Below are positions 1-53,828 of a stretch of DNA of 64,000 nt, one piece after another. Position numbers and translations under genes: made by a program. The stretch's first letter is position 1; the number at the start of each line of letters is the position of its first letter. Location: positions 1 through 64,000 of the forward strand of contig JAYWIR010000068.1 of NCBI GenBank assembly GCA_036172245.1, written 5' to 3'. The notes under the pieces are model-generated. The model saw only the letters and a list, made by a program, of their open reading frames with translations. It did no database searches and had not been told where the DNA came from. Source of the stretch: Raillietiella orientalis. Lineage: Eukaryota.

Positions 1-410
1 TTGTGGAGATCGACCGCGATCGCTAGGGCTCCCTTCCCAGCCCGGGTATCCATTCCCAGCCCAGCTGGCGGTCCCAAAGTGAGGTTGCCAATCTTTCCCC
101 CTGTGTCATTCAGGCAGCGCTGCACATAGAACCATGTGCTCGCGAAGAACAGGTTGGCATCCATACTTCGCCCGGGAACAGCGTACGTCTGCTCCGGGCT
201 AATTATGGAGTCTGCCACCTATCCTAGACGCGAAGCTCACAGTCCAGCGATCAGCTTGGCGTCCGTATTCACGATTGTGATCGGACGCCAATTGCCCAAG
301 GATCTCAGGTCTCCTCACTTCGGGAGGAGCCTCACACGGGCTGACCGAAACGAAGCGGGAACGTCGCCTTCGTCTCGGATCAGCCCGGTCAACTGAAGCA
401 CCAGGGGTGC
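1..410 (-). mobile_element. L1/Tx1-like family B, RT fragment (runs off the window start)
   Basis: Reverse complement closely matches ~34983-35393; encodes APLVLQLTGLIRDEGDVPASFRSARVRLLPK and ALAIAVDLHK. Confidence 0.9.
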
Positions 411-3400
411 CTCCGCGCGTTTATTCGGAGCTTCAGGATGCAGAGACTTCAGGACTGGGACCGCTTTAAGCAGTCGGTCCAGGAGTTCTGCGACCAGTTC
501 CCCCTGCATCGCCTACCTGCGGGATTTGGGGAGGGGCCGCGTAACGAAAGGTGCTATCTTCAGGCCCGACGTAACGCAACAACCCCCGACATGCGCAGGT
601 TAGCAGAGTATCGAGCGGGAGCCGAGAGGCAAGCCTGGCAATCCGGGTCGGCCAGCTTGCTGGACGACCAGGGCCGGGAGCACTCGGTTCCCGCTCAGAA
701 ACGCGGGATAGTGAGGAAATTTTACTCCTCCCTGTACGCCAGGGCGCCTCCGTAGCGAGACGTCTCACGACTTCTGCTTCCGGAAGGTGCTCCAGCGATT
801 GGGGAGGAGGAGAAAAGAAGCCTCGACGAGCGTTTCACGATGGACGAGATCCTCTCGGCCATCGGAAAGCTCAAGAGGCGGAAGGCTCCAAGGGAAGACG
901 GCCTGCCCGCGGAGTTTTACCAAACTTTCGCGGCTGAGCTTACCCCCCTGGTAGAGCAACTCACCTTGCTGATCCGCGAAACAGGTGACGTTCCCACCTT
1001 GTTTCGTTCAGCAAAGGTGCGGCTCCTTCCTAAGGGAGGAGACCTTAGGAGCATGAACAACTGGCGTCCCATCACAATAGTGAATGCGGACGCCAAGTTG
1101 ATAGCCAAGCTGTGGGCAGAGCGCCTGGGACGGGTCGCCAACATCTTCATCAGCTCGGAACAGACATATGCTGTTCCCGGGCGAAGTATGGAGGCGAACC
1201 TGTTCCACGCTTCCACATGGTTAGAGCTCCAACAAGAAAGGAGCATAATAAGCAACCGGAATTCCGGTGCGTCCGTCGGTGGGGAACATGATGGTCGAAA
1301 GGGGAGAGGAGCCCTCGCGGTCGCAGTCGATTTGCATAAAGCATTCGATTGCGTCGAACAGAATCTCCTTTTGGAGCTTCTGGAACGCTTGGGCTGGCCT
1401 ACCTGCGCTCCAGCTGACGCGACGCGCTTATTAATGTTTTTTTTAGTGGATCCACCGTGTACGGCGTACCGGTGCGACGCGGCATACGGCAGGGAGACAG
1501 CCTCAGCCCCTTGCTCTTCAGCGCCTATTTCGAATTGGTGCTGAGAGCGTACAGGGAGACTCTGGCGCACCTGCCGTGCGATTGTCCCGGTATGCCTGCG
1601 GTTTCGGCGTACGCGGACGATCTTCTGCTGCTGCTGCCTATGTCCACCCCGGCCTCGGCGGTCGAGGACTTCTTCGACCTGCTGAGTCGTGGAACAGGGC
1701 TGACGGTGAACAGGGCGAAGTCGTCCGTCATGCCAGTCGGAGCGGCGTGGGCAGGGCAGCAGGACTGGGTCCGTTTGGGGATCCCCACGGTGAGGTACTT
1801 CAAGTACCTTGGTGTGCCGTTGGGGGAGTACTCCCCTGCGGAAGCGTGGTCCGGCTGCCTTCAGAAGGCTCAGGCGGCGATCGGCCCGTTCCAGGACGGT
1901 AGGTTCTACCTGCAGGAACGGGCCGCGGCGTGGAACGCGTTTGCGGCCCCCCTCCTTCGCCCCTTGCTTTTTTTTGCCCCCCCTCAGCGGAGTCAAAGAA
2001 GAGGACGAAGGACCTCCTGAGGATCGCCCTTTGGGGCAGAGGGAGGCCCCGAGTCCGTCTTTCGGACTTGTGCGCTCCTCGTCGGGATGGTGGTCTGGGC
2101 CTCCTGACGTTGGAGCGGCTGGAGCTACAGCTCCAGTTACGAGTTGTTGCCTTTATGGCAGGAAATTGGTGCACCCCTTGGTGCCTCCCTGCACGTCTCC
2201 TCGTCGAGCGGGCCACCGGCAATGCGGGACTCTCGTCCTACTTTGCACTCCGAAGCGCCATCTGCCACTGCGGACTTCAGCTTCCTAGGGCGGCCAAGCT
2301 GGTAAAGACCAACTCGGAGCGGATCCTCGTACGCCCCGGGAACGGTCCTGTCTGGCTGCAGGAAACCGTCCGCACGTGGGCGATGACTCAGGAGCAGAGC
2401 CCGCAACACGAGCGAATAGCCCTGTTCGGGCCACACGCCCGCCGCACGCTCCGAGAAATCATCGAGGATCCCCGAAGGAGAGCGTGGGCACAAAGAACCT
2501 CCCTTGCTGCGGTGCTGCCTACTTCAAGGGAACATCTGGGCAGTGACGTCGCGGCACAATAAGAGGTTACTTTCAAGATCTTCGAAAGAAAGAAGATCGG
2601 GGATTGGAGAACCGGTCAGCTGACCAACGCTGCGACCCGAGGACCACCCCACACGGACTCTTGCGCTGGGGCGAGCTACTGGATGTTCCTGAGGAACATC
2701 TGGAGTGGCTTCCGATGCTCATGGACTCCCGAACCCTCCCCATGAAGTGCCAACATTCGGCACTCCTGGTGTTGCATTGGAGCCTCTTTAGCAACGCCCG
2801 CCGACACCACTGGACTCGAGGGGGTGTCAACCCCAATTGTGTCAGGTGCGGGGAGAGGGAATACTTCCCCCACCTGTTAGTGGAATGTGTTGCCCTCCGT
2901 CCCTTGTGAGAACGCTTTGCCGCGGCCCTGTGGATTCCCGGAGGCAACCCCAGAGACGCTTTGCGCCCCCTCTTCGTCCGGGGCCCCCCTTCCTCCGGCG
3001 GCCTCGCTTGCAGCCCTGTGCTGCCTACGCGGGATCTTCGTGGCCTGGAGCAAAGGGACGGGAGGCTCCAGCGGCAGGGACGCCACCGTGTTCGCCGCTT
3101 GTTTCCTAAGGATGGCGACGCGATGGCCTCATCTGAAATCCACCATTCAGCGACAGCTTCCCGGCATCCTCCAGAGGATGACGGACCCTCCCAGCAGACA
3201 GTGTACTTTTCCCGCTCCCTCCCCGGTTTTGTTTATTTCTTTGTTTTCTTTTTCTTCGATTCCCCCTCCCCTCTGCTGTCGAGGTAGACCGCGCTGGTCT
3301 GCGCACCGTTAGCCCAGTAGGCTGAATGTTTCTTTGGCGTGGCTGGACTATTGGTCCAGTCACAGTATAGATATGTCTATTTTAAAAAATAAACCTCCCG

Positions 3401-3416
3401 GCGTACCGGGTTTCAA
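411..3416 (+). mobile_element. L1/Tx1-like family A, 3' half (RT, C-terminal zinc domain, 3' UTR), disrupted
   Basis: NWRPITIVN, VDLHKAFD, GIRQGDSLSP, YADD and CVRCGE..HLL motifs spread over several frames; pyrimidine-rich UTR; AATAAA-hairpin end at 3388-3416. Confidence 0.93.
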
Positions 3417-3940
3417 GAAAGACTCTGAAGACGACGCCTCTCAGGAATTTGCGAAGGTGTTCGTTCGCACCTGAGAGTCGCGTCTAGTCCTTCGGGAGAC
3501 GCCACACCCTGGGTTTCAGGCTCATCGGTTAGGAGGCGGAGATTGAAATCTATCGCTATCAGTTGAGCCTTTTGCACGTTCGTGTTTGCCAGCCAGTCGC
3601 TATTCAGGGATTTCAGCAACCTTTTACGGTCGGAATAAGCTCTTTTGCCGCTGGGGGCGTACACATTCGTGACGATCAGATCGATCGAGTCGGACCAGCT
3701 TTGAGTCAGCTGACTGACTCGAGCGTCGTCATCGAAGCGCACGCCCTTCATGGCAGCGTTGATGGCTGGCTTCACGAAGAACGCGACCAAGCAGGTGTGC
3801 GGAGGCCGCGTTGCCAGTACAGCCGACCTCCCGCGATCGTCTCGATCTCCTAGGCATCTGCCGCGGTGATCACGTAGATCTTCTGCAGCAGGGCCAGGTC
3901 GAGCTCACGCAGAGTGTCGGCCGTATCTCGCCTGTTACCC
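3417..3940 (-). mobile_element. Family B endonuclease fragment with an internal deletion
   Basis: VAFFVKPAI and TNVYAPSG motifs; similar to 28200-28945. Confidence 0.85.
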
Positions 3941-3944
3941 TATT

Positions 3945-6773
3945 GTTCGGACGTGAATTCTTGCGCTCCGTCTTTGGTGTTTTTTGCGGCTGTTCCTTTT
4001 GGGTGTGCTTATGTTTTTCATTTAAAAATGAAGCCAGTGCTTGCATATATGGAGGTGGGGAAACCTCCCTGCGTCGCAGGGCCTTCTTCGGGAGGAGTGG
4101 AAGCCTCCACCGATCGTCCCTCGCCTCCAGCGAGAAGTTTTGCCGCCGTTGCTAAGGCAGTGGCGGCCCACAAAGCCCCACCTGACGAGGTAGAGCTGCG
4201 GCGTACGCCGCTAGCGGCTACAATCCCCCTCTGGCCTACAAGGTCAGTGCCGCGTACCAGGATGGGACGGGCGACCAGCTCTGGAACGAGCTCTAACGCG
4301 TAGGGTTCCGAGAGGACGATCTCCTGGCACTTATGCTAGTAAGCGCGGCTGGCCATTGGAAGGTGCACTGCAAGGATGCAGCCCTGGTAAAGCGCCTGCT
4401 GCGAACGCCCCTGAAAATCAGGGGTAAGGAGGTAGTCCCAGGGGTAAGTAGTATCGGCCCTGGACCAATCGTTCGTGGTCCAGCTCTCGGGCATTCGGAA
4501 CGCGACATCATTGTTGCACTCTAGGCGTTCGCCACAGAGCACGCGATGTGGAGGCGCGCGAATTTGATCGACAAAGTCGCGCGCCTCTCTTGCGGACTCG
4601 CAACGGCGCGCGTCACCATGGACGACCGGAGGCTCATGCCTTCCCAGATCCTCCTCGGTGACGTCGTCGTCTACCTCCGGTTTGCCGGGCAAAACCCTGC
4701 TTGCGGCAACTGCGGGAAGGAAGGCCACCGTCCGCGGAAGTGCCCGACATGCAGTTGCCGATACTGTAAGCTGCTCGGCCACTCAATTAACGATTGCGCC
4801 GAGCTATTACGTAGAAGGAGGGCGAGAAACCTCACCGCAACATCGCCTTCCGCGCCGACTCCATCCGCACCGTCGTCAGGGAAGAAATCCGGAGCGAACG
4901 GGGATTCGCAGCGGAAAAGTAAAAAGTCCGCTTGCGCGGGCGATTCTCGGAGCAATGCTCTCCAAAACCCCGCGCAGAAGGACAAGAAGCTTCTCCAAGC
5001 TGCTTCAGTAAAGCCCCGTGCGATCCAGCTCGCCGAAAACATCGGGCAGGCTGCGAAACCTCCGCTTCAGTCCGCTCTCGCTTTGGAGCGAAATAGCGGT
5101 GGCACGCCCGATAGGTCCAACGGAGAATCGAAAAAGGGTTCGCGCGCCCCTTTGCTCACGACAGGCAAGCCGGCCACGGCGAGACGAACGCCAGCAAAGA
5201 CTGAAAAGCCTCGCGCGACCACCGAGAATACCGCCACTCTGCCCGCACCTTCCGGTAAGGAGGTGCAAAAGGCAGACGCAGCGAAGGAGACACTGGCCTC
5301 CATCGCCGTATCCGAGGCCTTGGAAAGGATGCAAGGGACCCTGGAAGCCCTCGCGCTCAACCGAGGAAAACCGGAAGGCGGCGAGGATGGCTGGATTTTT
5401 GTTAAGGGAAGAAAGAAGAAGCGAAAACCGCGCGATCCTTTCCACTTCCCGATTAAAAAGGTAGGAGGGGTGAAGAGGCAGCCACGCGAGCCAAGGAAGG
5501 CGCAAGAAAAAGCCTGTGCTGCCGCAGCGCGCGCCGTCGTAAACACCAGCGGCGAGAGGGGAGCTACCGAAGCCGTGACCCCGGAAGGGGGATCGGGGAC
5601 GAAGGCACCCTCTAAGAGTGCTGGACCAGCTCCGGGATGCCAGCAAAATCAGAGGCAGAAAAAACGCTTGCCGCGCGCGCGCAATTCGGACTCCGAGGTG
5701 GAGTTCGAGGGCAGCGCTAAGGCGCGCCAAGCTTCGGTCAAGCCCAGGGCTGCGCGCAAGCCAAAACTTGCCAGGCAAGTGACTGCTGCCGGGAACGGTT
5801 CCCAATGCTCCTCGGAGCCCCAGGCAATGGATCTCGACTCCACCGAGCCAGCCGCGAGCGGCGCGGCGGGGACAGGAAGCGCTTGCGCTACCTCATCCGT
5901 TGTGCTTCCTGCTGCTGCCTCGCCGGACGGAACGAGGAACGCACCTCCATGTCCGCAGCAGCAATTCGTGGTCTCGCTTCTTCCCGTCGTGTCCGAGTGG
6001 CCTGTTGGAACGTCAACGTGCTGCAGGACAACGAGAAGAGGGGATTGGTTGCCAACGTCATTGCGCGACTTCGATCTGGCCCTGCTGCAGGAGATTCAAG
6101 CACTCTCCGAGCAGCAAGCGGCCGATCTGCAAGTTCGCGCAGGCGGGACGCTCCTTCAAAGGTCAGGCTCCCAGAATACCTGCGGAGTCGCATTCCTTGT
6201 CCGGGGCAGGGTGCCCGGAGCGATGCGGAGCGTTTGTTTCGACGAGGTAGGTCGTGTCGGCCAACTTGTTCTCAAGTGGTCCGAATCGATCAACCTTGTT
6301 GTCACGAACGTGTACGCGCCGAGCGGCTCCGCGCGTCACACAGATTAACTGAAGTTTTTCGAGAGACTGAACGACCGCTGGCTCAGCAACTCCGGCCCCG
6401 ACGTGGCTTACCTCGAAGCCGGAGACTTCAACGTCCACGCGCTATCAGAGGAGTCTTACCGTCGCCGGGAGAAACGGCTGGTGAACGAGGTGTGCGCGTC
6501 CGTGCACGCCTCGAAATTGCTGGCCGACGATCCCGAGATGCGCGCTTTGCCGGACCATATGTTCCTCGACGATCACGTGCATTGTCGGGTGGGTCGAATA
6601 GGTCCCGTGCCGTCCGAGCCTTCCGACTACTACAGGCTGGAGTTCTAGCTACTCCCGCCTGGAAAGGGTCCTCCGACGCACGTCTGGAGGTTGCCGGCCG
6701 ACTGGTTGTGAAATCCGGTGGCTGCAAAGCACCTCCGCCAGCATCTCCTGACCTTGGCCGTTCGAGAGCTCGT
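3945..6773 (+). mobile_element. Family C 5' half: 5' UTR, ORF1 and APE endonuclease, disrupted
   Basis: CGGACGTG at 3948; CGNCGKEGHRPRKC and CRYCKLLGHSINDC knuckles; ACWNVN, LLQEI, NVYAPS, AGDFN. Confidence 0.9.
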
Positions 6774-8886
6774 TTTTCACCCGGTTGCGCCGTAGCGTTT
6801 ATTCTTTAAAATAAAACCAACGTAGATGGCTGACCAGTGCTCTGGTCACGCACTGCTATACAAAATTAAGCCTGCCGGGTCATAAATTCATATTCCACAC
6901 GGTCCACCACGACAGCAGAGGGGCCAAGGACAAAACGAAAAATAAAACAAAAAAAAAAAATTTTTAATCAAGATCTGGGGGGAACGAGAAGGGATCACAG
7001 TCTTCTGTGGGACCGTTACATCGTTTGCAGGATGCCGGCAAGCTGTCTTTGGATGTTTGAATCCAGATGGGTCCATCCTGTCGCCGTCCGCATAAATTCG
7101 GCTGCGCACTGTACGGCACCCTTATCGCGAGGTCCTCCCGTTGCTTTGCTCCATGCAGCTACGATCCCCTGAAAGCAGCACAGAGCTGCTAACGCGGTCG
7201 AGGGCCGAAGGGCGTCGCAAACGAAGAGGGATCTAATTGCGTCTCTGGGGTTGCCACAGGGGTTACCGATTTCCGCGGCAAAACGGTTCCAAAGGGGCCG
7301 AAGAGCCACACAATCCAAAAGGAGGTCAGTGAGGGACTCCCGTTCTCCACACCTCGCACAATTAGGGCTCACCGCTGCCCAGGTCCAATGGTGTCGGCGG
7401 GCGTTGCAGGGGAGTCCCCAATGCAGCAACAATAGCGTTGACTCCTGCCATTTTGAGGAGAGGATGGAGGTGTTCATCAGCACCGGAAGACACTTTAATT
7501 GTTCTTGCAGAACATTAAGCAGCTCGCCCTAGCGCAAAAGTCTAATAAGGGTGGTAGTCCGGGGCGAGGTATCGCAGAGAATTCCCGTTTTCCATTCCCC
7601 GATCTTTTTCTCCGTACCGGAGATTTTGATGTAAACATCCCATTTCGCAGCAGTGTTGCTGTTTAAATGTTCCGCGAGCGGAAACAGCATTGCAGCGAGG
7701 GGAGTTTTTCTTGCCCACGCTCGTTTTTGGGGGTTCTCCAGGACCTCCTGGAGAGTCAGGCGGTCATTACGAGCGAAGAACTGTCTCTGCCTTTCTTGGG
7801 TGCGTTGCTGGTTGCTCCTCGCCCACGTCTGAACCGTTTCCTGCAGCCATGCAGGTTCGTTAACGGGGCGACAGCAGAGCAATCCTGCGTTCTTTCTCAT
7901 CAGGTCAGCCACTCTCCGTAGCTTCAACCCGCAGTGACCGACTTGGCGGCGCCGACTGAGCGCAAGGAAGGATGACAGTCCCACCTTGCCTGTAGCCTGC
8001 TCGACGAGGAGACGTGCTGGCTCGCACCAGCTGCTATTCGAATATTTTGCCACTAGGGCGTGTAATTGAAACTGGAGCTGGAGCTCCAGCAGCTCTAGAG
8101 TCAGGAGACCGAGACCGCCGTCCCGACGCGGAGCGCTCAAGTCCTCAGGCCGGACTCGGGCCCTCCCATTACCCCACAGGGCAATCTTTAGGAGGTCCTT
8201 CGTCTGCTTTTTAGTCTCTGTGGTGTGGGGACAATTAAATAGCAGGGAACGGAGGAGGGGCGCCGCAAATGCGTTCCACACCGCGGCCCGTTCCTGCAGG
8301 AAAAACCTGCGGCCTTGGAACGGGCCGATCGCCGTCTCTACCATTTCAAGGCAGCTGGACCACGCATCCGAAGGGAGATAATCACCCATCTGTACACCGA
8401 GGTACTTGAAGTACCGTACCGTGGGGATCCCCAAACGGACCCAGTCCGGCTGCCCTACCCACGCCGCACAGATTGGCATGACGCACGACTTCGCCCTGTT
8501 CACCTCAAGCCCGGTTCCCCGACTTAGCAGGTCGAAGAACTCCTCGACCGTCGATTCCGGGGTGGACATAGGGAGCAGCAGCGGTAGGTCGTCCGCATAT
8601 GCTGACACCGCGGGCGCACCGGGATAGTCGCGCGGCAGGTGCGCTACAGTTTCCCTGGACGCTCTCATTACCAACTCGAAGTAGGTACTGAAGAGCAAGG
8701 GACTCAGGCTGTCTCCCTGACGTATTCCGCTTTGCACCGGTACGCCGTGCACGGTGTGTCCACTGAAAAAGATCTGGATGAGCGCGTCGCGCCAGCAGGA
8801 TCGCAGGTAGGTCAGCAAAGAGACCGGGAAGCCCAAGCGTTCCAGGAGCTCCAGGAGGAGCCTCTGCTCGACACAGTCGAATGCTT
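6774..8886 (-). mobile_element. Family D 3' half (RT from KAFD onward, zinc domain, 3' UTR)
   Basis: ORF 7529-8836 has GIRQGDSLSP, YADD, FKYLG; ORF 7016-7483 has CARCGE; terminal hairpin ~6774-6803. Confidence 0.92.
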
Positions 8887-9230
8887 ATCCGTGAACTCGT
8901 GGACTGGGACGATCTGAAAAGATCGGTCCGCGAGTTCTGCTGCCAGTTCTTTTTGCACCTGCTTCCCCACGGCTTCGGGAGGGGTGTCGCGAACAGCAGA
9001 TCCTTTCTGCAGGCGCGTGCCTTCTCCCGATGCCCGGACGTCCGGCGTCTGGCGGAGTACAAGGCCAGAGCCGAGCGCCAGGTTTGGCAGTCTGGAGCGG
9101 CTTGTCTGCTCGATGATGCTAGCCAGGAATGCTCGGATGCAGCCGACGTGCGACGCGTAGTTGAGCGCTAGTACTTGCCCATACAGTAAGATCAGTTCAG
9201 AAAGATCACCGGCACGCCGGTTGCCTTCCA
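8887..9230 (+). mobile_element. Family C-like ORF2 fragment resuming after the D insertion
   Basis: IRELVDWDDLKRSVREFC continues the reading broken at 6773. Confidence 0.85.
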
Positions 9231-17065: not shown

Positions 17066-17069
17066 GACC

Positions 17070-25709: not shown

Positions 25710-26294
25710 CTATCAACTTGGCGTCCGCATTCACTATTGTGATGGGACGCCAGTTGTTCATGCTCCTTAGGTATCCTCCCTTCGGGAGGAGCAGCACCTT
25801 TGCTGAACGGAACGAGGTGGGAACGTCACCTGTCTCGCGAATCAGCAAGGTGAGTTGCTGTACCAGGGGGGTAAGCTCAGCCGCGAAATTTTGGTAAAAC
25901 TCCGCGGTCAGGCCGTCCTCCCCTGGAGCCTTCCGCCTCTTGAGCTTTCCGATGCACGAGAGGATCTCGTCCATCGTGAAAGGCTCGTCGAGGCTTCTTT
26001 TCTCCTCCTCCCCTATCGCCGGAGCACCTTCCGGAAGCAGAAGTCGTGAGACGTCTCGCTCCGGAGGCGCCCTGGCGTACAGGGAGGAGTAAAATTTCTT
26101 CACAATGCCGCGGTTCTGAGCAGGAGCCGAGTGCTCCCGGCCCTGGTCGTCCAGCAAGCTAGCCGACCCGGATTGCCAGGCTTGCCTCTCGGCTCCCGCT
26201 CGATACTTTGCTAACCTGCGCATGTCGGAGGTTCTCGCGTAACGTCGGGCCTGAAGATAGCACCTTTCGTTACGCGGCCCCTCCCCGAATCCCA
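25710..26294 (-). mobile_element. Family A ORF2 fragment (linker to start of RT)
   Basis: GFGEGPRNER...KAPGEDGL...NWRPITIVNADAKLI. Confidence 0.9.
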
Positions 26295-26394
26295 ATCCTC
26301 GAGAGCGGACGTGTTTTTCCGGCGCTCCGCGAACGAGCAGCGGAAAGCGGTTTTTTTTGGTTCAGTGTGTGCTTTTTCACATCGTTGGTGTCCG

Positions 26395-28281: not shown

Positions 28282-29159
28282 TCACCTCGGCAGACGTCCA
28301 GGAGATCGAGGCGCTCGCGGGGGGTCGACTGTATTGGCGATGCGGCGCCAGCAACACCTGCGAGGTCGCGTTCTTCGTCAAGCCGGCCATCGACGCTGCC
28401 GTGAAGGGCATACGCTTTGATGACGACGGTCGGGTCGGTCAGCTGATTCTCAGCTGGTCCGACTCGATCGAATTGATCGTCACGAACGTGTACGCCCCGA
28501 GCGGAAAAGGGGGATACAGCGACCGTACCAGGCTGCTGGAAACCCTGAAGCGCGATTGGCTGGCCGACACGAATGTGCGGAAGGCACACCTGAAAGCTGG
28601 AGACTTCAATCTCCGTCTGCTGTCAGGTGAGCCCGAAGCACAAGAACGCACGGCCAACGAGTTCTTCGCTGCCATGCGCACGCGCAACTTGTTGGCAGAC
28701 GCGGAGGGAATGGACCGCAGCATCGACCACTTCTTCCTGGACGTCGACCTGTGCTCGCGGGTCGGCAAACGGGGAAAAGTTGCGTCGACGCTGTCGGACC
28801 TTTCCAGGATCATCGCCGAGGTTTGCCCGCGCGACAAAGGACCCCCGTCCAGGGCGTGGCGGCTGCCTGGGGACTGGACGCGGCTCTCAGGTGCGAAGGA
28901 ACACCTTCGCGAATTCCTGAGAGGCGTCACCCTCCGCAGTCTCCATTGAAACCCGGGTGCGCCGGGACGTTTATTCTAACGAATAAACTTATACAATCTG
29001 TGACTGGACCAGTAGTCCAGCCACGCCCCAGAAAATTTCAGCCTGCCGGGCTGCCGGTGCGCAGACCGGCGCGGTCCACCTCGGCAGCAGAGAGGAGGGG
29101 AATGAAACAAAAGAAAACAAAAAAATAAAAAAAAAAACGGTGATGGAGCGGGGAGGGAT

Positions 29160-32100
29160 GACTGTCTGCTGGGAGGGTCCGTCCTTCTCTGGAGGATTTC
29201 GGCAAGCTGTTGCTGGATGGTGGATGTCAGATGGGGCCATCGCTTCGCCATCCTCAAAAAGCGGGCGGCGTACACGGTAGCATCCCTGTCGCTGGTTCCT
29301 CCCGTCGCTTTGCTAAATGTCACTACGATCCCGCGTAGGCAGCACAGGGCTGCAAGCGAAGCCGCTGGAGGCAGGGCGTCACGGACGAAGAGTGGGCGCA
29401 AAGCGTCTCTGCGGTTGCCTACGGGGATACCCAGGGCCGCGGCAAAGCGTTCCCACAAGGGACGGAGAGCAACACAATCCACTAACAGGTGAATGAGGTA
29501 TTCCCTCTCCCCGCACCTGACACAATTGAGATTGACACCCTCCCGCGTCCAGTGGTGTCGGCGGGCATTGCAAGGAAGGCCCCAATGCAACACCAGGAGT
29601 GTTGACTGTTGCCAATTCATGGAAAGGGTGCGCGAGTCCATGAGCACCGGGGGCCACTCGAGATGTTCCTACGGAACAACCAGTAGCTCGCCCCAGCGCA
29701 AGAGTCCGTGTGGGGAGGTCCTCGGGGACGCAGCGTTGGTCAGCTGGCCCGTTCTCCAATCCCCGATCTTCTTTTCCCTGTTGGCGAAGTTGAAGGTAAC
29801 CTCCCATTGTGTCACGAGGTCACTGCCCAGATGTTCCCATAGGGTAGGCAGTACCCCAGCAAGGGAGGTTCCTTCTGCCCACGCTCTCCTTCAAGGATCC
29901 TCGACGATTTCACGGAGAGTACAGTGGGCGTGCGGCCCGAACAGAGCTATTCGATCGTGTTGCGGGCTCTGCTCCTGCGTCATCGCCCACGTGCGAACGG
30001 TTTCCTGCAGCCAGGCAGGACCGTTCGCGGGGCGTACGAGGATCCGCGCCGAGTTGTTCTTCACGAGCTTGGCCGCCCTCCCAAGTTGAAGTCCGCAGTG
30101 GCAGATGGGGCTTCGGAGTGCAAAGGAGGACGAGAGTCCCGCATTGCCGGTGGCCCGCTCGACGAGGAGACGTGCAGGGAGGCACCAAGGGGTGCACCAA
30201 TTTCCTGCCATAAAGGCAACAACTCGGAACTGGAGCTGTAGCTCCAGCCGCTCCAACGTCAGGAAGCCCAGACCACCATCCCGACGAGGAGCGCACAAGT
30301 CCGAAAGACGGACTCGGGGCCTCCCTCTGCCCCAAAGGGCGATCCTCAGGAGGTCCTTCGTCCTCTTCTTTGACTACGCTGAGGGGGGGCAAACAAAAAG
30401 CAAGGGGCGAAGGAGGGGGGCCGCAAACGCGTTCCACGCCGCGGCCCGTTCCTGCAGGTAGAACCTGCCGTCCTGGAACGGGCCGATCGCCGCCTGAGCC
30501 TGCTGAAGGCAGCCGGACCACGCTTCCGCAGGGGAGTACTCCCCCAACGGCACACCAAGGTACTTGAAGTACCTCACCGTGGGGATCCCCAAACAGACCC
30601 AGTCCTGCTGCCCTGCCCACGCCGCTCAAACTGGCATTACAAACGACTTCGCCCTGTTCACCGTCAGTCCTGTTCAACGACTCAGCAGCTCGAAGAAGTC
30701 TTCGACCGCCGAGGCCAGGGTGGACATAGGCAGCAGCAGCAGAAGATCGTCCGCGCACGCCGAAACCGCAGGCGTACCGGGGCAATCGCACGGAAGGTGC
30801 GCAAGAGTCTCCCTGTACGCTCTCAGCACCAATTCGAAAAAGGAGCTAAAGAGCAGGGGGCTCAGGCTGTCTCCCTGCCGTATGCCGCGTCGCACCGGTA
30901 CTCCGTGCACGGTTTGCCCGCTGAAAAGAACATTAATGAGCGCGTCGCGCCAGCTGGAGCGCAGGTAGGCCAACAAAGAGGCCGGGAAGCCCAAGCGTTC
31001 CAGAAGCTCCAGCAGGAGATTCTGGTCGACGCTGTCGAATGCTTTACGCAAGTCGACAGCGACCGCAAGGGCTCCCTTCCCCACCCTACCGTTCCATCTC
31101 TCGCCAACGGACGCACCGGAATTCCGGCTGCTCAATAAGCCCCTTCCTTTTGGAGCTCTAACCATGTGGAAGCGTGGAACAGGTTCGCCTCCATGCTCCG
31201 CCCGGGAACAGCATAAGTCAGTTCCGGGCTCATGAAGATGTTGGCGACCCGTCCCAGGCGCTCTGCCCACATCTTGGCTATCAACTTAGCGTCCGCATTC
31301 ACTATTGTGATGGGATGCCAGTTGTTCATGCTCCTTAGGTCTCCTCCCTTCGGGAGGAGCCGCACCTTTGCTGAACGAAACGAGGTGGGAACGTCACCTG
31401 TTTCACGGATCAGCAAGGTGAGCTGATGTACCAGGGGAGTAAGCTCAGCCGCGAAAGTTTGGTAAAACTCCGCGGGCAGGCCGTCCTCCCCTGGAGCCTT
31501 CCGCCTCTTGAGCTTTCCGATGGCCGAGAGGATCTCGTCCATCGTGAAAGGCTCGTCGAGGCTTCTTTTCTCCTCCTCCCCGATCGCTGGAGCACCTTCC
31601 GGAAGCAGAAGTCGTGAGACGTCTCGCTCCGGAGGCGCCCTGGCGTACAGGGAGGAGTAAAATTTTCTTACTATCCCGCGTTTCTGAGCGGGAACCGAGT
31701 GCTCCCGGCCCTGGTCGTCCAGCAAGCTGGCTGATCCGGATTGCCAGGCTTGCCTCTCGGCTCCCGCTCGGTACTCTGCTAACCTGCGCATGTCGGGGGT
31801 TGTCGCGTAACGTCGGGCCTGAAGATAGCACCTTTCGTTACGCGGGCCCTCCCCAAAACCCGCAGGTAAACGATGCAGGGGAAACTGATCGCAGAACTCC
31901 TGGACCGACCGCTTGAAGCGGTCCCAGTCCTGAAGTGTCTGCATCCTGAAGCTCCGAATAAACGCGCGGAGGTGCTCCGCCGCGTCGGGAAACTTCAGCC
32001 AGTCCCCTGGCAGACGCCACGCTGACGAGGGGGGGCCCTTGTCGCGCGGACGCACTTCGAACATGATCCGACCATGGTCCAACAGCTCGGATGGTACCTT

Positions 32101-32739
32101 GCCACGCCTGCCCAACCGAGAGCATAGCTGCTGATCAAGGTACACGTGATCGATGCTGCTTTCCATGGCTGTGTCCCCGGCCAACAAGTTGCGCGTGTTC
32201 ATTTCTGCGCACAACTCGTTGACGCGGTCGTTCAGTGTATCCGGCGCACCTGAAAGCAGGCGCAGGTTGAAATCACCTGCGATCAGGTGCGCTTTGCGAA
32301 CTCCTGCATCGGTCACCCAATCGCGTCTCAGGGCAAGGTAGAATTCCCTTCTTGCCTTCGCCTTCAACGCGTTATTTCCGCTAGGAGCGTATAGGTTGTT
32401 GACGACCAGGTCGATAGAGTCGGACCAGCTGAGAGTCAGCTGACCGACGCGACCTGCGTCATCGAACCGAACGTCCTTTATTGCGGTGTCGATGGCTGGC
32501 CGAAGCAGGAAGGCGACACCGCTTGATTTCGCGGGGCCGCAACGCCACAACAGCCGCCCACACGAGATCTGTTCGATCTCCCGGGCTTGATCTGCGGAGA
32601 TCACATGGATCTCCTGCAGCAGCACCAGGTCGGAGGATGCCAGGGTGGCGGCCACGTCACGCCTCTTGCCGTCGTCGCTTAGCCCGTTCACGTTCCAACA
32701 GGCGATCAGAAGACGACGGCGAGAGGCGATTCCCGGCAT
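29160..32739 (-). pseudogene. Family A ORF2 (APE-RT-zinc), frameshifted near 31140 and 30360
   Basis: ORFs 31132-32739, 30674-31270, 29891-30298 and 28976-29647 carry consecutive ORF2 motifs. Confidence 0.9.
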
Positions 32740-34397
32740 TATGGCTGGGAAAGTGGCGTCGCGGCACCTGCCGCGGGGCAGGTGTACGAAAGGTCCATGG
32801 GTACGAGGACCATCGGAACGAGGACGGAGGCCTCTTCAGGCGCCTGGTGTACCTGTTCGGCCTCCATCCTCACCATCCCCTCCGTGTCCGAGCGTGGAAT
32901 TCTCTCGGGCGACGGGTCCCGGGAGTTTCCCACGCTCATGGCACCCTCGCTACCACAAGCCATCTCTTCCCCTTCGTCGGGGGAGACGATCTTCCGGGGC
33001 ATTGTGGACTTTCGTCCTGCCTTTTTGCGGGGTGCCGCGGAGATGGATGCTGTGTTTCCGGCCTTCACCTCGGGGTCGGAAGTGGCCGACTCCTGAGGGG
33101 AAGCCGGACGTCTGACGGCCTTCTTGCCAGCCTTGGGGGCAACCGGCTGCAACGAGGCAGCCAGCTCCTCCGCGGCGCGCTCCAAGGCGACGTCATCGAG
33201 CGTGGGCTCGATGACGCACGCCACCGCCTCGCTCCACTCCTTGTTGACTTTGTCAACGGAGGGTTGAGCAGGGGCAGCAGGGAGTTCTTTAGCGCCGCAT
33301 TCGTCGATGGCGGGAATCCGCTCTACAACGACGCAGCAGCTTTTAATTTTATCGCGGCGCAGAGCGGTTTCGCTCCGTTTCGCCACGTTCTTTCCCTTCT
33401 TATGGGAGGTTTTCTTGGGGTCGACCTTCTGCCACCCTGGCTCTTGACCCTCGCCCTCGACCTTTTCGGCGTCTTTCGCCGAAGTCTCCGGGCTGGCCTT
33501 CGCCTTGGTGGCGGAGGTGACCTCCTTAGCAGCAGCACGAGCTGCCAGCTTCTTTCTCTTTTTTGCCGCGCGCTTTCTCGCGTTTTTCGCGCACACGACG
33601 CGGACTGTGTTTTGGGGGCACACCAGACGAGTGTGCCCCGCTTGTTTGCATTGCTGGCACTGCACGCTCGGACACCTCATTTTAAGGTGACCAAAGCTGC
33701 TGCAGCAGCCGCAAAACTTGGGTTTCCCCACGTACCACACGTCAACGGATTCACCGTTGACGGTGAGTTTGTGGGGAATCTCAGATCCCTCGCGAACCGT
33801 CACTCGCGCTGCACCCAGGCCGCCAAGCAACCCGTCGTGATCGACAAAAGGAGTAGGCTTGCCCCACAGCGCGTGGAGAGTTGCGAATTTTTCCAATTTG
33901 TTCCGGACGGCCTCCTTCGTCATCCGGAACGTGATACCGGTCAGGTGAATGATCACCGACCGGTCTTCTGTTATTGGGAGAAGCCTCCGGCTGCCCATAC
34001 TTACGGAGGTTCGCAGAAGTCTCTGCGCAAGAGTTGCCTCCTTGCAGATAACTTCCACAAATTGACCCCCGCTTCTGACGGACATAGCCAGAAGCTCCTC
34101 TTTCTGTACGCCGAGAACGCGCATCGCCTGTGAGAAGGCGCGCGCGTTCTCGGGAGAATATAGACCGCCTACCTTATATAGAAGGGGTGGGTCATACCCC
34201 TCCTCCAGGTAAGCGCGCATTTCCGCCATAGCCGCTGGCGTAGGTGCCGCAGCCATGGCGTTCCAAGCCCTGGGTAGGGCCGGGGGCGCATCCATGCTGG
34301 CGGAAGCCTCCATTGATGCGGGAGCCCCCACCTCCATCTCCTCCGGGGGCAATGAGGTCATCGCCCTCGCATCCTCACCGGTGGTGGTATCAGGCAT
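32739..34397 (-). CDS. Family A ORF1, open, 552 aa
   Basis: ATG-to-stop ORF with CGCCSSFGHLKMRC and CQQCKQAGHTRLVC knuckles. Confidence 0.9.
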   Translation of the reverse strand: MPDTTTGEDARAMTSLPPEEMEVGAPASMEASASMDAPPALPRAWNAMAAAPTPAAMAEMRAYLEEGYDPPLLYKVGGLYSPENARAFSQAMRVLGVQKEELLAMSVRSGGQFVEVICKEATLAQRLLRTSVSMGSRRLLPITEDRSVIIHLTGITFRMTKEAVRNKLEKFATLHALWGKPTPFVDHDGLLGGLGAARVTVREGSEIPHKLTVNGESVDVWYVGKPKFCGCCSSFGHLKMRCPSVQCQQCKQAGHTRLVCPQNTVRVVCAKNARKRAAKKRKKLAARAAAKEVTSATKAKASPETSAKDAEKVEGEGQEPGWQKVDPKKTSHKKGKNVAKRSETALRRDKIKSCCVVVERIPAIDECGAKELPAAPAQPSVDKVNKEWSEAVACVIEPTLDDVALERAAEELAASLQPVAPKAGKKAVRRPASPQESATSDPEVKAGNTASISAAPRKKAGRKSTMPRKIVSPDEGEEMACGSEGAMSVGNSRDPSPERIPRSDTEGMVRMEAEQVHQAPEEASVLVPMVLVPMDLSYTCPAAGAATPLSQP

Positions 34398-37300
34398 TTC
34401 TGCCTAATCCTCCACCCACACCACGCACAAGCACCCACGGAAATGGAACTCAGGAGCAACGAAAAGACACGTCCGCTCGACGCTCCGCAGTCTCCAAGAC
34501 TGGGACCTCTTCAAGGCCTCGGTCCGCGAGTTCTGCGAGGAGTTTCCCCTTCACCGCCTGCCCCCCGGATTCGGGGAGGGGGCTCGGAACCATCAAGCTT
34601 ATCCACAGGCCCGCCGGTACGAGAGGACCCCGAATGTCCGTCGCCTCGCGGAATATCGAGCCGGGGCCGAACGCCAAGACTGGCAATTCGGGTCGGCCAG
34701 CTTGCTGGACGACCAGGGCCGGGAGCGATTCGCCCCACCCGCGATCAGGCACCTCGTGCGACGTTACTACTCCTCCCTCTACGCTAGGGCACCCCCAGAG
34801 CGGAACGCCTCGCGGCTCCTGCTCCCGGATGGAGCACCGGCAATAGGGGAGGAGGAGATCAGCCTCGACGAGCCTTTTTCTACCGGTGAAATTCTCGCCG
34901 GTATTAAAAGGCTCAAAAGGCGTAAGGCGCCAGGGGAGGACGGCCTGCCTGCGGAATTCTTTCAATGTTTCGCGGCAGAGCTGGCACCCCTGGTACTTCA
35001 GTTCACCGGGCTGATCCGTGACGAAGGCGACATTCCCGCCTCGTTTCGGTCAGCCCGTGGGAGGCTCCTCCCGAAGGGAGGAGACCTGAGATCCTTGGGC
35101 AATTGGCGTCCGATCACAATCGTGAATACGGACGCCAAGCTGATCGCTGGACTGTGGGCTTAGCGTCTAGGACAGGTGGCAGACTCCATAATTAGCCCGG
35201 AGCAGACGTACGCTGTTCCCGGGCGAAGTATGGATGCCAACCTGTTCTTCGCGAGCACATGGTTCCATATGCAGCGCTGCCTGAACGACACAGGGGGAAA
35301 GATTGGCAACCCCACTTTGGGACCGCCAGCTGGGCTGGGAATGGATACCCGGGCTGGGAAGGGAGCCCTAGCGATCGCGGTCGATCTCCACAAGGCGTTC
35401 GACTGCGTAGACCAGGAGCTACTGTTGGAGCTCCTGGGTCGAATGGGCTTCCCACCCTCCCTTCTCTCCTACCTGCGCTCATGCTAACGCAATGCCATTG
35501 TCAACACCGTCTTTTCCAGCCAACAGGTGTACGGCGTGCCGGTGCGGCGGGGCATACGGCAGGGCGATAGCCTCAGTCCCCTGCTCTTCAGCACCTACTT
35601 TGAGTTGGTGCTGAGAGCGTACAGGGTGACTTTGGCTGCCCTGCCCAGCTCGTGCCCCGGCACGCCCGCCGTAGCAGCATACGGCGACGATCTTCTGCTC
35701 ATGTTGCCCATGTCCGCCCCGGCAGCCGCAGTCGAGGATTTCTTCGACCTGCTAAGTCGTGGGACTGGACTACGGGTAAACAAGGCGAAGTCGTCGGTCG
35801 TACCGGTGGGTGCGACGTGGGTCGGACGGCCTGACTGGATCCGCTTGGGGATCCCCACGGCCAGGTACCTGAAGTACCTGGGTGTCCCGTTGGGGGACTT
35901 CTGCCTCGCAGAAGCATGGTCAGGTCGTCTATAGAAGGTAGAGTTGGCAATCGGCCCGTTCCTGGAAGGCAAGTTCCTTCTGCCGGAACGGGCCGCGGTG
36001 TGGAACGCCTTCGCGGCTCCCATCCTCCGCCCCCTGCTTTTCGTGTGCCCCGTCCCCCGTGAGATTAAAAAGAGGACAAAAGACCTACTCCGCATCGCCC
36101 TCTGGGGCAGCGGGAGGCCACGTTTGCCTCTGGATAATTTATGCGCTCCTCGTCGGGACGGCGGTCTCGGCCTCCTGACGCTGGAGCGCCTCGAAATACA
36201 GCTGCGATGGCGTACCCTCGCCATCGCAGCGAAGACTTGGAGCATTCCTTGGTGCGTTCCGGCTCGCCTCCTCGCCAGACTTGTGTCCTGGTGTGAAGGA
36301 TTCGCGTCTTTCCTTCTGTGCCGTGGCCAGAAGATTCGAAGGTACGGCCTACTGCTCGGGTGCATGGCAACCCTGGCGAAGGAGAACCGCTCGATGGTTT
36401 GTGGCCCCGCCAACTCCTCCGCTTGGCTGGAGGAGCCTGCTGGCACCTGGGCCAAACAAAACTCGAGGAGTCAAGATCCGATTAACTGACTGCGCATCGG
36501 CCTGTACGCCCGCCGCACCCTGCGGGAAATACTAGAATTTCCGCGTGTCGCGCGTGCGCGCAGAGGACCACCCGTGATAGGGCGATGCCCTACCTCTGGA
36601 GGGCGCTTCACGGCCGCCAGAAGAGGAGGTGGCAAGTCTCTTGTTGAATTGCAGGCAGAAAAAAGATGTTAAGCGGCTGGATCACAGGAGAACTGGCGGA
36701 CGCCAAGACCCCGAGCGTCCAGCCGCGAGGATTGATGAGATGGGGCGAGCTGTACGCCATCCCTACGTATGTGCTGAAGTGGCCCCCGGTACTCTAGGAA
36801 TCCAGGATCTCTTTCCTTAAGTGGCAAGAGTCGGCGTTGCTACTGCTGGACTGCGGTTTACCCAGCAACGCGCGCCGCTTCCACTGGACGAGGGGAGCTG
36901 TGGGTCCTGAGTGTGCCAGGTGCGGGGAGCGTGACTCGCTCCCCCACCTTATTGTGGACTGTGCTCCCCTGCGTCCCCTTTGGGAACGGTTCGGGACGAC
37001 CCTCGGGCTCTCTACGGACAGCACCCCCAGAGACGTTCTCCGGCCCCTCTTCTTGAAGAACAACCTGCATCCAGCCGCAGCCTTCCCAGCCCTGTGCTGC
37101 GTCCGAAGCATTGTGGCGGCCTGAATTCACACTAACAACTAAGGAGTGTATCCAAACGCGAGGGAAGTCGTCCCATACGTCCAACGCTTCATGCGAAGAG
37201 CTGCAGGATGGCCCCAACTGGGGAATATACGGATGGACCTCGAGGGCTTCCTTCTCACAGCGAGCAGTTATCCCTTGCCTGCCCTCCAACTTCTTTTTGT

Positions 37301-37479
37301 TTGTTTATTTTTATTTTTATTTTTGTTTTATCCCCATTCCCTTTCGTTTCCGGGGAGTGCCACGCTGGGCTGCGTCCCGGCGTTCCGGCAGGTCCTGTGC
37401 CTATAACCGTGAGCGGGTCCTCCTACCACGGATGTAGAGTTTTTTCAAATAAACGCCCCGGGCGTACCCGGGTGACAAC

Positions 37480-37706
37480 TCCCAGTAATTAGTGATCTCT
37501 TCCCTGCCCTCCAACTCCTTTTCGTTTTCCTTATTTTTTTTTATTTTTTCTTTTTGGTTTTCCCCCCATCCCCTTTCACTGCTGAGAGCCATGCCGGGCC
37601 GCGTTCCGGTGTCCCGTTAGGTCGCGTGTCCATGGCCGTAGTGGGGCCTTCAGCCACGATTATGGAGTTTGCTAAATACACACCCCGGGCGTACCCGGGT
37701 GTTAAC
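37480..37706 (+). mobile_element. 3'-UTR-only LINE fragment
   Basis: Pyrimidine tract, GC-rich block and terminal AATACAC-CCCGGG-CGTA-CCCGGGT hairpin. Confidence 0.75.
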
Positions 37707-40700
37707 CCCGGACGAGGATCGCCATTACGCATGCGTGTGCGGAGCCCTGCTGCCCGTGTAGCGTCCCGCCTGCGCGCTCTCCCAGATTCAATGCCTGTTG
37801 TTTGGAGATGCTGTGTATATCCTCCAGCAGATCGAACGCGCGCAAGGCGTTGGCTACCGTCCGCCTCTTGGCGTCGCTCAGCCCGTTGACATTCCAACAG
37901 GCAACGCGGACGCCACGAGCGTACCCGAGTCCACGCATTACTGCTGCGGACAATACGGCGTGCGCCTCGCCCCGTCCAGCGTTGAGTCAGCAGGCAACAC
38001 AACGGACTAGGAAGTGGAATCGCTAGCGTTCAACGTTATTTCGCTCCCTGCTCAGTGCTGGCACACGAGAATCATCGCCTCAGGCTACAAACAGGTGTCG
38101 GAGTTCCTATGGCAAGAAGCTTCTGCGTGTGCACTTTTGCCCGGCGCGCTTCCTGCATGCGCTCTCTTGTTTGCAAACGCACTCCATCTCGAAGTCCGAA
38201 TGCAGAGCGCGAGATTAGCGTTTTGCCTGTCTGCTAGTGCCAGCAGGTGCAAGCTTTCCATGCCCGCGTGGATATCGCCGTAGTCGCCAACGCAGCTTCC
38301 GGAGCGTTGGCTTCTGCAGCCGCGCTCTCGCGCTGAGCGACAGACAGAGCTCGCAGCCGCAGTGCGTAGCTGGATACGCACCTTCTTCGGCATTTTGCGC
38401 TTCCTCCTTCCACTTATCTTCAGTATGGAAAATTGCGAATGGTCTACCTTCTTCCCGTTTGTATGCGTCCTGGCCACCAGAGTCCAGACCGCCTTGCCGT
38501 CGTCGGGAATGCCCTTCTGGTAAGCCGACGTCTCCCTCGCCTGTTTGTCCGGAGTAACCGAGTCAAATTTCGCGCTTCCGACAAGATAAGTCTCCGTCCC
38601 CGATACCCGCTGCACCTGCTCCTTCGCCAATGCGGGCGACACGGCGTTCATTGCCGCCATCGCACGATGCGCTCTGGCAGCTTACGCTCCCAGTGCTTAC
38701 GCCGTGGAAGGCGTGCTCTCCACGGCCTTCGTGGGAAACGGCCGTTCAAAGGCAGTTCCGAACGAGCTTGCTCTCGGTTTCCCGTGTAGTCTGCTGGACG
38801 AGGAAACGGACGCGGCCTTTGTTAGGTACGTGGGTGCACTCTTAGGCTAATTCAAAAGGGACAACTTGTCATCAGAACAACGTGTCATATTCCCCGGATG
38901 CGCGAATGTCTGGGATCGTGCCTCCCTGATGCAAGCGCAACCTTTTTCGCGGGACTGCCTCTCGCTAAAGCCGCGTCATTCGCGCTCGATTTCTACAGGA
39001 TCACAGCGGGAGAGCTTTTCGGCGCGGACTTCGTCAATTGTTGGCGATTTTTTTCCTGCCGCTTCCGCTTCAGCTCGGCGCACTCTTTAATCGAGTGGAC
39101 GAGCAGTTTGCAATAGCGGCAGTTGCGAAAAGGGCACGTCCACAGACGGTGGCCCTCTGGGCCGCAAATGCCGCAAGCCGGTCGCTGACCGGCAAATTTA
39201 AGGTGGAGGATCGCGTCGCCCACCTGCAAATGCGGAGGCATTTGCCTCCTATGCGCCATGGTGATACGCGCCATGGCAAGTCCGCTGTGGAGAGATGGAA
39301 TCCGTTTTATAGGATTGTCTGCTTTCCACAGCGCGTGCACCGTTACGAATGCACTAAGTGCATCGACGAGCACGCGATCGGGCGTGTCCACCCGGACGGC
39401 GGACAATCGGACCACCAACGACTGGTTCATGGCTGAACGGACGACCTCCTTCCCGCCTATCTTGAGCGGGATGAGAAGGCGCTGGACTAGGGCTGCATCT
39501 TTGATAGAGGCATTGAAAGGGAAGAAGTGCCCTAGGTGCCTCAGGAGATCGAAACTCTTATGGCCATCTCACCTGTCTCGGAAGAGTTGGGTCCCCCACA
39601 CCGTGAACTTCCCAGCAATAATGACGGGAAGCTCCTCTCGCCGTCATCAGCGCATTGCCGTTTGGAACGTCCACGGCATGACAAACGCCGCCAATAGACG
39701 CATCCTTCCAAAACCTCCCGTTATAGGATGGCGGCCTATTTTTCCCAATTCACATCTGTTTTTGTCGCGTGCTTACCGGAAGGTGCGGGCATAGTGGCGG
39801 GATTTTCTTGAGTCGCACGAGGCTTTGCCGCCTTTACCGCGAATCGTTTTTTCGTGGCCGACTTGCCTTTCGCAGACGGAGGGGGACGCGACCCCTTTTT
39901 GGGCGCTACGGAGGACTTCCCGAGCGTGCCACCATATTTCGTTCCGGAGCTATAATGGACGGAGGCTGCGGCTCTGCCTATTGCGTTTTCTGCATGCTGG
40001 GTCTCTCGGTGGCTCCAGGCTTACTTTTGGCAACTTGGAGATACTTTTTCCCTCTTTTGGTGAATTCTGGGGAGCTTTGCTCCCTGACATGGACGTGCAA
40101 TTGGATTTTTGGCTACTCCGCTCCGAGGCTTCGTTCGTGCCGGATTTCTTGCCCGAAGATAGGGCGCATGAAATCTGCATGGACGGCGATGTTACGGATA
40201 CGTTCCTTGCCCGCCTTTTACGTTTTAGCTCGGCGCACTCGTTGATCGAATGGGCGAGCATCTTACAGTAGCGGCAACTGCGTGTGAGGCCCTTCTGCCT
40301 TTCTTTCCGCAGTTTTTCATGCCGGAGTTTGTGCAGCAAAGCGAATAAATATGACGGCGTCACGGATGGATCTCCGAAGGCAGCAGTCTCCGGTTCTCCA
40401 TGATGACGCGCGCCGTGGAGAGTCCACAAGAGAGGCGCGGAACCTTCTTGACGGGGGTCACGCGCCTCCACAATGCGTGCACGGTGGCGAACGCCTCTAT
40501 TGCAACGATCATGTGGCAGTCAGCTATTTCCGTCAAAATGTCCGAGTTGGACCACGAACGAATGGTCCAGGGCCGAGGGGACGACCTCCTTACCCCTGAT
40601 TTTCAGGGGTGTTCGGAGCAGGCGCTGGACGAGGACTGAATCCCTGCAGTGCATCTCCCAATGCCCGAGCGCGCTTACTGCCAGGAAGTCGTCCTTGCAG

Positions 40701-52640: not shown

Positions 52641-52659
52641 CTTCTACGCAGTTACCAAC

Positions 52660-53802: not shown

Positions 53803-53828
53803 CTTTTAGCTTTTTGTATTGCATTCAT

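Follow-up and report, generated by a model that had tools for sequence, protein, structure and literature searches.

A LINE nest with alternating strands in Raillietiella orientalis and repeated antisense insertion at one bond of LINE ORF2

The nest and its elements

The first 64,000 nucleotides of contig JAYWIR010000068.1 of Raillietiella orientalis (assembly GCA_036172245.1; this whole stretch is called the window below) carry, at positions 1-37706, a nest of long interspersed nuclear elements (LINEs) that are inserted into one another and lie on alternating strands. Three of the insertions share one position and one orientation in the second open reading frame (ORF2) of their targets. This position, site A, is the bond 1 nt 5′ of GACTGGGAC (reference coordinate 2908), just past the APE domain in ORF2. 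Reference coordinates are those of the full-length copy Eh (19815-25709, 5895 bp). The anatomy of the nest (Table 1) was read from this one assembled window. Its GC content was about 56-63% up to about 40 kb and 38-50% toward the right end.

The LINEs of the nest belong to several subfamilies of the L1 superfamily, lack poly(A) and end in a 3′ hairpin. Long ORFs at 1-37.7 kb carried the reverse transcriptase (RT) domain PF00078 (best E = 8.7e-21, in the ORF at 22201-25503), and the APE-type endonuclease domain PF03372 was detected in nest ORFs with E = 1.9e-13 (31132-32835, minus strand) and E = 2.5e-16. ORF2 had the domain order of the L1 superfamily (APE-type), an N-terminal APE endonuclease followed by the RT; matches to zf-RVT in nest ORFs stayed under the cut-off. 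Among solved structures, the nearest to the ORF2 protein was human L1 ORF2p (E = 4e-42), with R2 at E = 2.8e-14. The same protein had 14 relatives at E ≤ 1e-3 in a large protein collection, the best of them 68% identical and unnamed and the others at most 29% identical. ORF1 was present upstream (647 and 688 amino acids) with a zf-CCHC match of 19.2 bits against a cut-off of 20.8, and a search among solved structures found no relative of it. An Rfam search returned no match.

All 3′ ends read AATAAAC..CCGG-loop-CCGGGT followed by 5-7 nt and had no A-run; the 3′ poly(A) tail of the relaxed L1 type was thus absent from the nest elements. In this they resemble the stringent type, with a 3′ stem-loop. 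Intact 5′ ends read ..GCGGACGTG.., and a complete 5′ end was seen in at least five elements (Ed, Ef, Eh, Ei and Ej), and three of these (Eh, Ej and Ef) extend over the full length, in one or two blocks. Target-site duplications and frequent 5′ truncation, both traits of the L1 superfamily, were found in the nest: the duplications of Eh, Ej and Seg8 were perfect (11/11, 14/14 and 16/16 bases), and truncated ends lay at reference coordinates 2866, 3806, 3397 and 2170. The endonuclease domain of Ej was open across the 312 amino acids translated. In Eh, ORF1 is open, and ORF2 has a stop and a frameshift in the N-terminus of the APE domain, after which it is open for 1100 amino acids. Because of these two lesions (an in-frame TAA and the frameshift within 21990-22200), Eh is not autonomous as it stands. 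In its ORF1, a 24-nt (8-codon) unit is also repeated in tandem about 8 times (19982-20191), the only repeat returned by Tandem Repeats Finder.

The preliminary description of this stretch had counted 17 junctions between LINE segments, 16 of which flip the strand, with essentially no other DNA between the segments. We searched the window by tblastn with ORF1 (19977-21920) and ORF2 (22201-25503) of Eh. Over 1-37.3 kb, the strands ran -, +, -, +, -, +, -, (+), -, +, -, +, -, +, -, +, where the eighth block (13597-15568) had no tblastn match and was assigned to the plus strand by its APE-domain ORF. Breaks placed by blastn against Eh and by flank-by-flank mapping were at 410, 3416, 3944, 6773, 8886, 13596, 15568, 17066, 17462, 19814, 25709, 26294, 28945, 34482, 37479 and 37706. 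Together, the three approaches bore out the flips at 16 of the 17 junctions. The junction positions matched within a few bases in 16 of 17 cases; the remaining one, given as 9230, really lies at about 9200, where it is set by the 3′ hairpin (9204-9222) of the minus-strand element. The only same-strand junction was indeed at 37479, and the one at 37706 does flip, to a minus-strand LINE piece. There is no spacer DNA in 1-37706, since 88.6% of this interval matched another LINE copy of the window and the eight unmatched stretches all lay inside element bodies (5′ untranslated regions (UTRs), ORF1, a 3′UTR and the APE-only LINE).

Logan contigs of a sequencing run, X1, had 0.20 of the sampled words in common with the window. 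Over 17001-37000 there were 321 short contigs of this run (30 at ≥99%, 95 at 95-99% and 196 at 90-95% likeness), and the apparent joints in them fit mosaic matches between paralogous copies.

Fragments were joined into elements by shared strand, collinearity in reference coordinates and target-site duplications. The 17 junctions resolved into 12-13 elements and about 10 insertions. Ej splits Ei, Eh splits Eg and Seg8 splits Ef, each with a perfect duplication, and Ee splits Ed (3945-6773 / 8887-9200) with an imperfect one. Ef and Eg sit in Ed-like plus-strand pieces (8887-9200 / 17067-17462), between which about 213 bp of the target are missing. The 5′ end of Ei is joined to the interior of Eg through the microhomology TCCCA, with deletion of the intervening DNA, and its 3′ end is inserted into the plus-strand tail. 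That tail may represent the 3′ end of Ed or a distinct element. The first segment, Seg1, probably stands for a young Ei-like element of its own and not for a part of Ec, because its divergence from Ei is about 9-fold below that of Ec (Seg3).

The truncated 5′ end of Ee (8886; reference 3806) lies 10 nt upstream of the nick at site B (3816; 17462), the insertion site of Eg in another copy. Had an element been split at site B with a 10-nt target-site duplication, its 3′ part would be expected to start at reference 3806. Ee may come from the 3′ fragment of such an interrupted copy, or the proximity of 3806 and 3816 may have arisen by chance.

Table 1. LINE segments of the nest and two pieces to its right (site A and reference coordinates as in the text; clades J and G from the RT tree)
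Element	Positions	Strand	Description
Seg1 (Ea?)	1-410	-	RT fragment, reference 3807 to 3397; 96.6% identical to 34983-35393
Eb	411-3416	+	Clade-J LINE, 5′-truncated at 2866; 3′ hairpin end ...CCGGGTTTCAA adjoins site A of Ec
Ec (Seg3)	3417-3944	-	Ei-like fragment from site A back to reference 2170; internal deletion of ~212 bp
Ed part 1	3945-6773	+	Complete 5′ end, ORF1, ORF2 as far as site A
Ee	6774-8886	-	Clade G; 3′ end at site A of Ed; 5′-truncated at 3806; imperfect target-site duplication
Ed part 2	8887-9200	+	Starts again 14 nt before the site-A nick; runs to about reference 3207
Ef part 1	9201-13596	-	3′ hairpin (9204-9222), ORF2, beginning of ORF1
Seg8	13597-15568	+	LINE derivative of another family, 1972 bp, APE domain only; perfect 16-bp duplication CTAGCGATCGCGAGAG
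Ef part 2	15569-17066	-	ORF1 and complete 5′ end
Ed part 3 (inferred)	17067-17462	+	Reference 3417-3816; ends at site B (..GCGTTCGA^)
Eg part 1	17463-19814	-	Clade-G LINE; 3′ hairpin end at site B
Eh	19815-25709	+	Full-length reference copy, 5895 bp; perfect 11-bp duplication CAACTTGGCGT
Eg part 2	25710-26294	-	Reference 3558 to 2978; 5′ side lost on insertion of Ei
Ei part 1	26295-28945	+	Complete 5′ end, ORF1, ORF2 as far as site A
Ej	28946-34482	-	Full-length clade-J LINE in site A of Ei; perfect 14-bp duplication CTCCGCAGTCTCCA
Ei part 2	34483-37479	+	Site-A target-site duplication through to the 3′ hairpin end
Tail	37480-37706	+	Last 227 bp (reference 5673-5891) of a plus-strand LINE; target of Ei
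Piece R1	37707-39503	-	Start of ORF2 back into ORF1; receives a 3′ end at 37706
Ek	51224-54981	+	Clade-J LINE in pieces 51224-52371 and 53930-54981; outside the interval of the preliminary description

Recurrent insertion at site A

At the protein level, site A lies in the context ..LQDWD.., about 30 residues beyond the end of the APE domain. The 3′ hairpins of Ej in Ei, Ee in Ed and Eb in Ec end at the identical bond, and all three inserts are antisense. The targets are three different LINE copies. In each of them the sense strand supplied the primer, and the insert is therefore antisense. Random insertion would put 3 of 9 events at one bond in one orientation with a probability of about 6e-7, and 2 of 8 events with a probability of 0.002.

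Eb and Ej differ at 57, 55 and 116 sites of codon positions 1, 2 and 3, respectively (p = 1.5e-7). This concentration of differences at third positions indicates that the two are independent retrotranspositions, whose divergence largely accumulated under selection before insertion. The 5′ ends of the site-A inserts also differ: Ej has its full length, while Ee and Eb are cut short at 3806 and 2866, respectively.

The site-A region was retained in eight copies of the window, and in three of these (Ei, Ed and Ec) the site is occupied by a LINE. The break in Ek is 2 nt beyond the site-A nick, with non-LINE DNA following, and that in Eb is 42 nt upstream of site A.

The users of site A are related. 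In a tree of the RT region, Ej with Eb and Eg with Ee formed one clade (J+G, 98/98 support), apart from Eh with Ei and from Ef/R4/R6; within it, Ee falls in clade G, apart from the clade-J copies Ej and Eb. Site A was occupied by three of the four J+G copies but by none of the five other copies whose 3′ junction could be seen. Eg, the remaining member, is at site B, ..GCGTTCGA^CTG.. (..TTCGA^CTG..), again within GACTG. All four J+G copies, including the three at site A, are antisense to their targets. These targets come from other clades, Ei and Ec from that of Eh and Ed from that of Ef.

Motifs resembling site A are more frequent on the sense strand of the LINEs. In Eh, Ej, Ef and Ei together, the sense:antisense counts were 38:15 for ACTGG, 34:16 for GACTG and 8:1 for ACTGGG. 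This excess could, post hoc, give a milder antisense bias of insertions elsewhere.

Other candidate determinants and hot spots failed. For the 3′ end of the element's RNA to pair with the target primer, a match would be required, but one (GGGTGAC) is found in Ei only, not in Ec or Ed. A 6-bp inverted repeat, CAGTCT cca AGACTG, surrounds the site A of Ei (28931-28951, 34482-34502) and has the nick where its loop meets its stem; Eh (22706-22731) keeps a 5-bp repeat with changes on both arms (CAATC..GATTG). The changes in Eh match one another; the repeat was nevertheless rejected as a determinant, since it is missing from Ed and Ej. A third hot spot near reference 2300 was suggested by breaks at 37707, 48562 and 51150, which turned out to be about 22 and 65 nt apart in the alignment. 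The start of the window was considered as a site-B junction and rejected, since it lies 9 nt ahead of the site-B nick, on the side that does not fit a junction.

Strand alternation and its possible causes

Each nested insertion makes two junctions, which is how about 10 events can appear as 16 flips. Exact enumeration over the reconstructed topology gave a probability of 0.0015 for at least 16 flips in 17 junctions, or 0.003 if the 227-bp tail is separate, as compared with a naive 0.00014. The count of 16 in 17 thus overstates the evidence roughly ten-fold, and the practical warning is that counts of junction flips inflate orientation bias wherever nested insertions add junctions in pairs. When the 3′ end of each insert was compared with its target, 8 of 9 LINE-into-LINE junctions in the nest were antisense (P = 0.02). 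All four insertions with target-site duplications were antisense (P = 0.06, the imperfect one of Ee counted), among them all three with perfect duplications (Eh, Ej and Seg8). The alternating interval 1-37706 was itself picked post hoc, because it alternates. By itself, the strand pattern is suggestive but not compelling.

From the anatomy, the target-site duplications, the threefold use of one bond and the independence of the inserts, we consider it probable that this is a real nest built by successive target-primed reverse transcription, in which the J+G lineage homes antisense into site A of LINE ORF2 and so produces alternating strands. The J+G endonuclease would nick the sense strand of the target ORF2, 1 nt 5′ of GACTGGGAC. 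The nicked sense strand would prime synthesis of complementary DNA, and the new copy would necessarily be antisense to its target. Each new copy would bring its own site A, and repeated rounds would yield an onion of alternating strands. We infer that the specificity resides in the endonuclease/ORF2 protein of the element. For the events at other sites, the antisense bias is only suggestive and would derive from an excess of nick-site motifs on the sense strand.

The preliminary description had proposed that integration is orientation-specific. For clade J+G, with three antisense insertions at one bond, this proposal is supported; for the other insertions, 5 of 6 antisense, it is no more than suggested. 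Several observations weigh against the homing that we favour. With the site-A events removed, the antisense fraction of 5/6 has P = 0.11. Of the LINE pieces at 37.7-57 kb, the first two are on the minus strand and the next seven on the plus strand, and a hand tally over the whole window gave about 10 opposite against 9 same-strand relations (P = 0.5), with no net bias. Site A rests on three events and the clade on four copies, all in one window. Eh, Ej and Ef have an intact, unoccupied site A; the site-B nick is 3 nt off the position expected from the site-A rule; and a nick consensus shared by all nine events was sought and not found. The single same-strand insertion, Ei into the tail, was primed on the antisense strand of a 3′UTR, by a primer whose last bases are ACTGGGA; this geometry is unlike that of site A.

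Some of these counts would be expected from chance and geometry, that is, from insertion at random sites and strands, with junctions coming in pairs and an alternating stretch picked from a larger cluster. The reduction of 17 junctions to about 10 events, the 5/6 outside site A, the even whole-window tally and the mostly same-strand right-hand 20 kb all speak for it. Same-strand relations are also hidden from the count, as for Ei in the tail, which gives a single junction, and for Ec and piece R1, which are both on the minus strand. Against it stand the topology-aware probability of 0.0015 for the flips and, above all, the three independent inserts at an identical bond in the same orientation. 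Such a hot spot is beyond the reach of pure chance, and we give this explanation only a minor share of the probability. Removal of same-strand nests by recombination between direct repeats had also been offered in the preliminary description. Under such a filter, LINEs would insert equally in both directions and the inverted nests would survive. The copy-to-copy identity is indeed a mosaic along the length, and internal deletions and head-to-tail arrangements occur among the same-strand pieces at 43.6-51 kb (48562/48564, 45977-45990, 50287). The insert/target pairs, however, are only about 66-82% identical, and repeats so diverged are a poor substrate for homologous recombination. All three insertions with perfect duplications, too young for filtering, are already antisense, and the filter leaves the thrice-used bond unexplained. 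Such removal is not needed to account for the nest and looks quite unlikely.

An inverted segmental duplication or an assembly artefact could account for the fact that the composite at 1-3944 mirrors that at 28212-35393. Three inverted matches make up this mirror: 1-411 with 34983-35393 (96.6% identical), 410-3512 with 28849-31972 (89.9%) and 3515-3939 with 28212-28637 (81.7%). Their identity is, however, uneven, from 82% to 100% in 200-bp steps, and third codon positions carry twice the differences, unlike the neutral decay of a duplicate. Neither a duplication nor an artefact accounts for Ee in Ed, a third site-A event by an insert of another clade with another 5′ end. Perfect target-site duplications and hairpin ends exactly at the junctions are also unlike mis-assembly. 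We regard this explanation as very improbable, and return to successive insertion with homing by J+G.

A broader form of antisense homing by J+G is speculative, and we hold it to be rather doubtful. This LINE lineage would be a hyper-parasite of its own superfamily, homing to an ORF2 motif of about 10 bp, always antisense, and thereby maintaining self-renewing alternating-strand nests as a safe harbour away from genes, with convergent transcripts (double-stranded RNA (dsRNA) and small RNAs) and a possible structural role like that of the Zepp-like clusters of algal centromeres. Possibly, the 3′ tail of read-through RNA from a site-A copy, being complementary to the primer strand at other site-A copies, would reinforce such homing. 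Read-through dsRNA from the nest, which the preliminary description had predicted, is plausible. The inverted pairs of highest identity (90-97%) are separated by 24-35 kb. If the homing is real, it would provide a simple mechanical account of alternating-strand LINE nests, predict a short recognition site for an APE-type endonuclease, and make such clusters built-in sources of sense and antisense RNA.

Neighbouring sequences and comparison with known systems

To the right of the nest, the block at 40971-43632 is C-rich and lower in GC, has a GC skew of -0.18 to -0.26 and matches none of the other LINE copies. An ORF crossing its right edge (43187-43690) contains an RT fragment (PF00078, E = 1.8e-6). 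The block is probably a different, older retroelement. At 45930-46000, a same-strand head-to-tail junction (45977-45990) consists of a 3′ hairpin end, the 12 nt CTTCAATCGAGT and a complete LINE 5′ end; here a single target site may have served two elements in tandem.

Ek is interrupted by non-LINE segments at 52372-53929 and 54982-~56140, which share 67.6% identity between 53300-53755 and 55346-55809. The first contains an ORF (52665-53123) with a circovirus-type replication-protein domain (PF02407, E = 1.8e-15), and the second starts 2 nt past the site-A nick of Ek. The two look like endogenous remnants of a CRESS-DNA-virus-like element. Further right, in the low-GC (38-45%) non-LINE part of the window, two plus-strand ORF fragments (58993-59286 and 59428-59754) matched the Monjiviricetes fusion glycoprotein PF24664 with E of about 1e-12 to 1e-13, and look like a degraded envelope gene of viral or retroelement origin. 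The 3′ end of Seg8 reads ..CCCCACCCCTTGTGGGACTTGGGGAAAC, and a second copy of this element lies at 63676-64000 on the minus strand (98.5% identical over 326 bp). Site specificity of Seg8 was considered and rejected on the unrelated flank of this copy. The high identity and the unrelated flank show a family that is recently active and inserts without site specificity.

A search of metagenomes with the 3′-hairpin pattern gave 121 loci, none of which (0/121) had tblastn similarity to LINE proteins at E ≤ 1e-5, so the pattern is too loose for this purpose. No report of antisense LINE homing to a fixed site in LINE ORF2 was found in the full-text literature searched, from which subscription journals are mostly absent.

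L1 twin-priming yields 5′ inversions, in which LINE segments of opposite orientation likewise adjoin; the inverted 5′ part and the direct 3′ part then belong to one element and share a single pair of target-site duplications. It was rejected as a source of the nest, because the blocks are separate elements of different subfamilies with their own 3′ hairpins and often their own duplications and complete 5′ ends.

The LINE clusters of the Zepp type in green algae, which are putative centromeres with one cluster to a chromosome, are a parallel. As in the nest, where Zepp-style insertion into existing copies forms a cluster, L1-superfamily LINEs there insert into existing copies and build dense clusters with little other DNA. 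According to the accessible part of PMC8226300, the Zepp-like clusters are tandem arrays of mostly 3′ ends; no such array was found at 1-37.7 kb. On this description the Zepp/ZeppL arrays would be same-strand, whereas the nest alternates and one of its lineages uses a site internal to ORF2. The elements differ in length as well, about 5.9 kb without poly(A) here against 8.3 kb for ZeppL-1_cRei. The accessible text of PMC9940879 and of two preprints on such clusters is silent on orientation or a fixed site. If homing to site A is real, it would show how gene-free LINE clusters, for example those at algal centromeres, could form and renew.

Double insertions of site-specific transposable elements at one site can also build repeat arrays (PMC5932611). 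The case described in the accessible part of that paper concerns head-to-tail dimers at a host target, whereas here the site is inside the element and inverted nesting results. The homing that we favour resembles that of site-specific LINEs in the recurrent insertion of independent copies at the same nucleotide and in a fixed orientation into a repeated target. Site-specific LINEs are known for ribosomal DNA, telomeric repeats, small-RNA genes and one DNA transposon. The APE-type ones (R1, TRAS/SART and Tx1L) insert by target-primed reverse transcription at a fixed site and in a fixed orientation into a multicopy target, with short target-site duplications; Tx1L, for example, inserts into the Tx1D transposon. 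Families of this kind have nearly all their copies at the target and cleave it sequence-specifically with their own endonuclease. The specificity seen here is not absolute, with three of the four clade copies in the window at site A and one at site B. Unlike the targets of R1, TRAS and Tx1L, the target here is ORF2 of sibling LINEs, so that each insertion makes a new target and the strands come to alternate. The coding sequence of sibling LINEs, entered at a fixed site and antisense, would then be a new targeting niche for a LINE.

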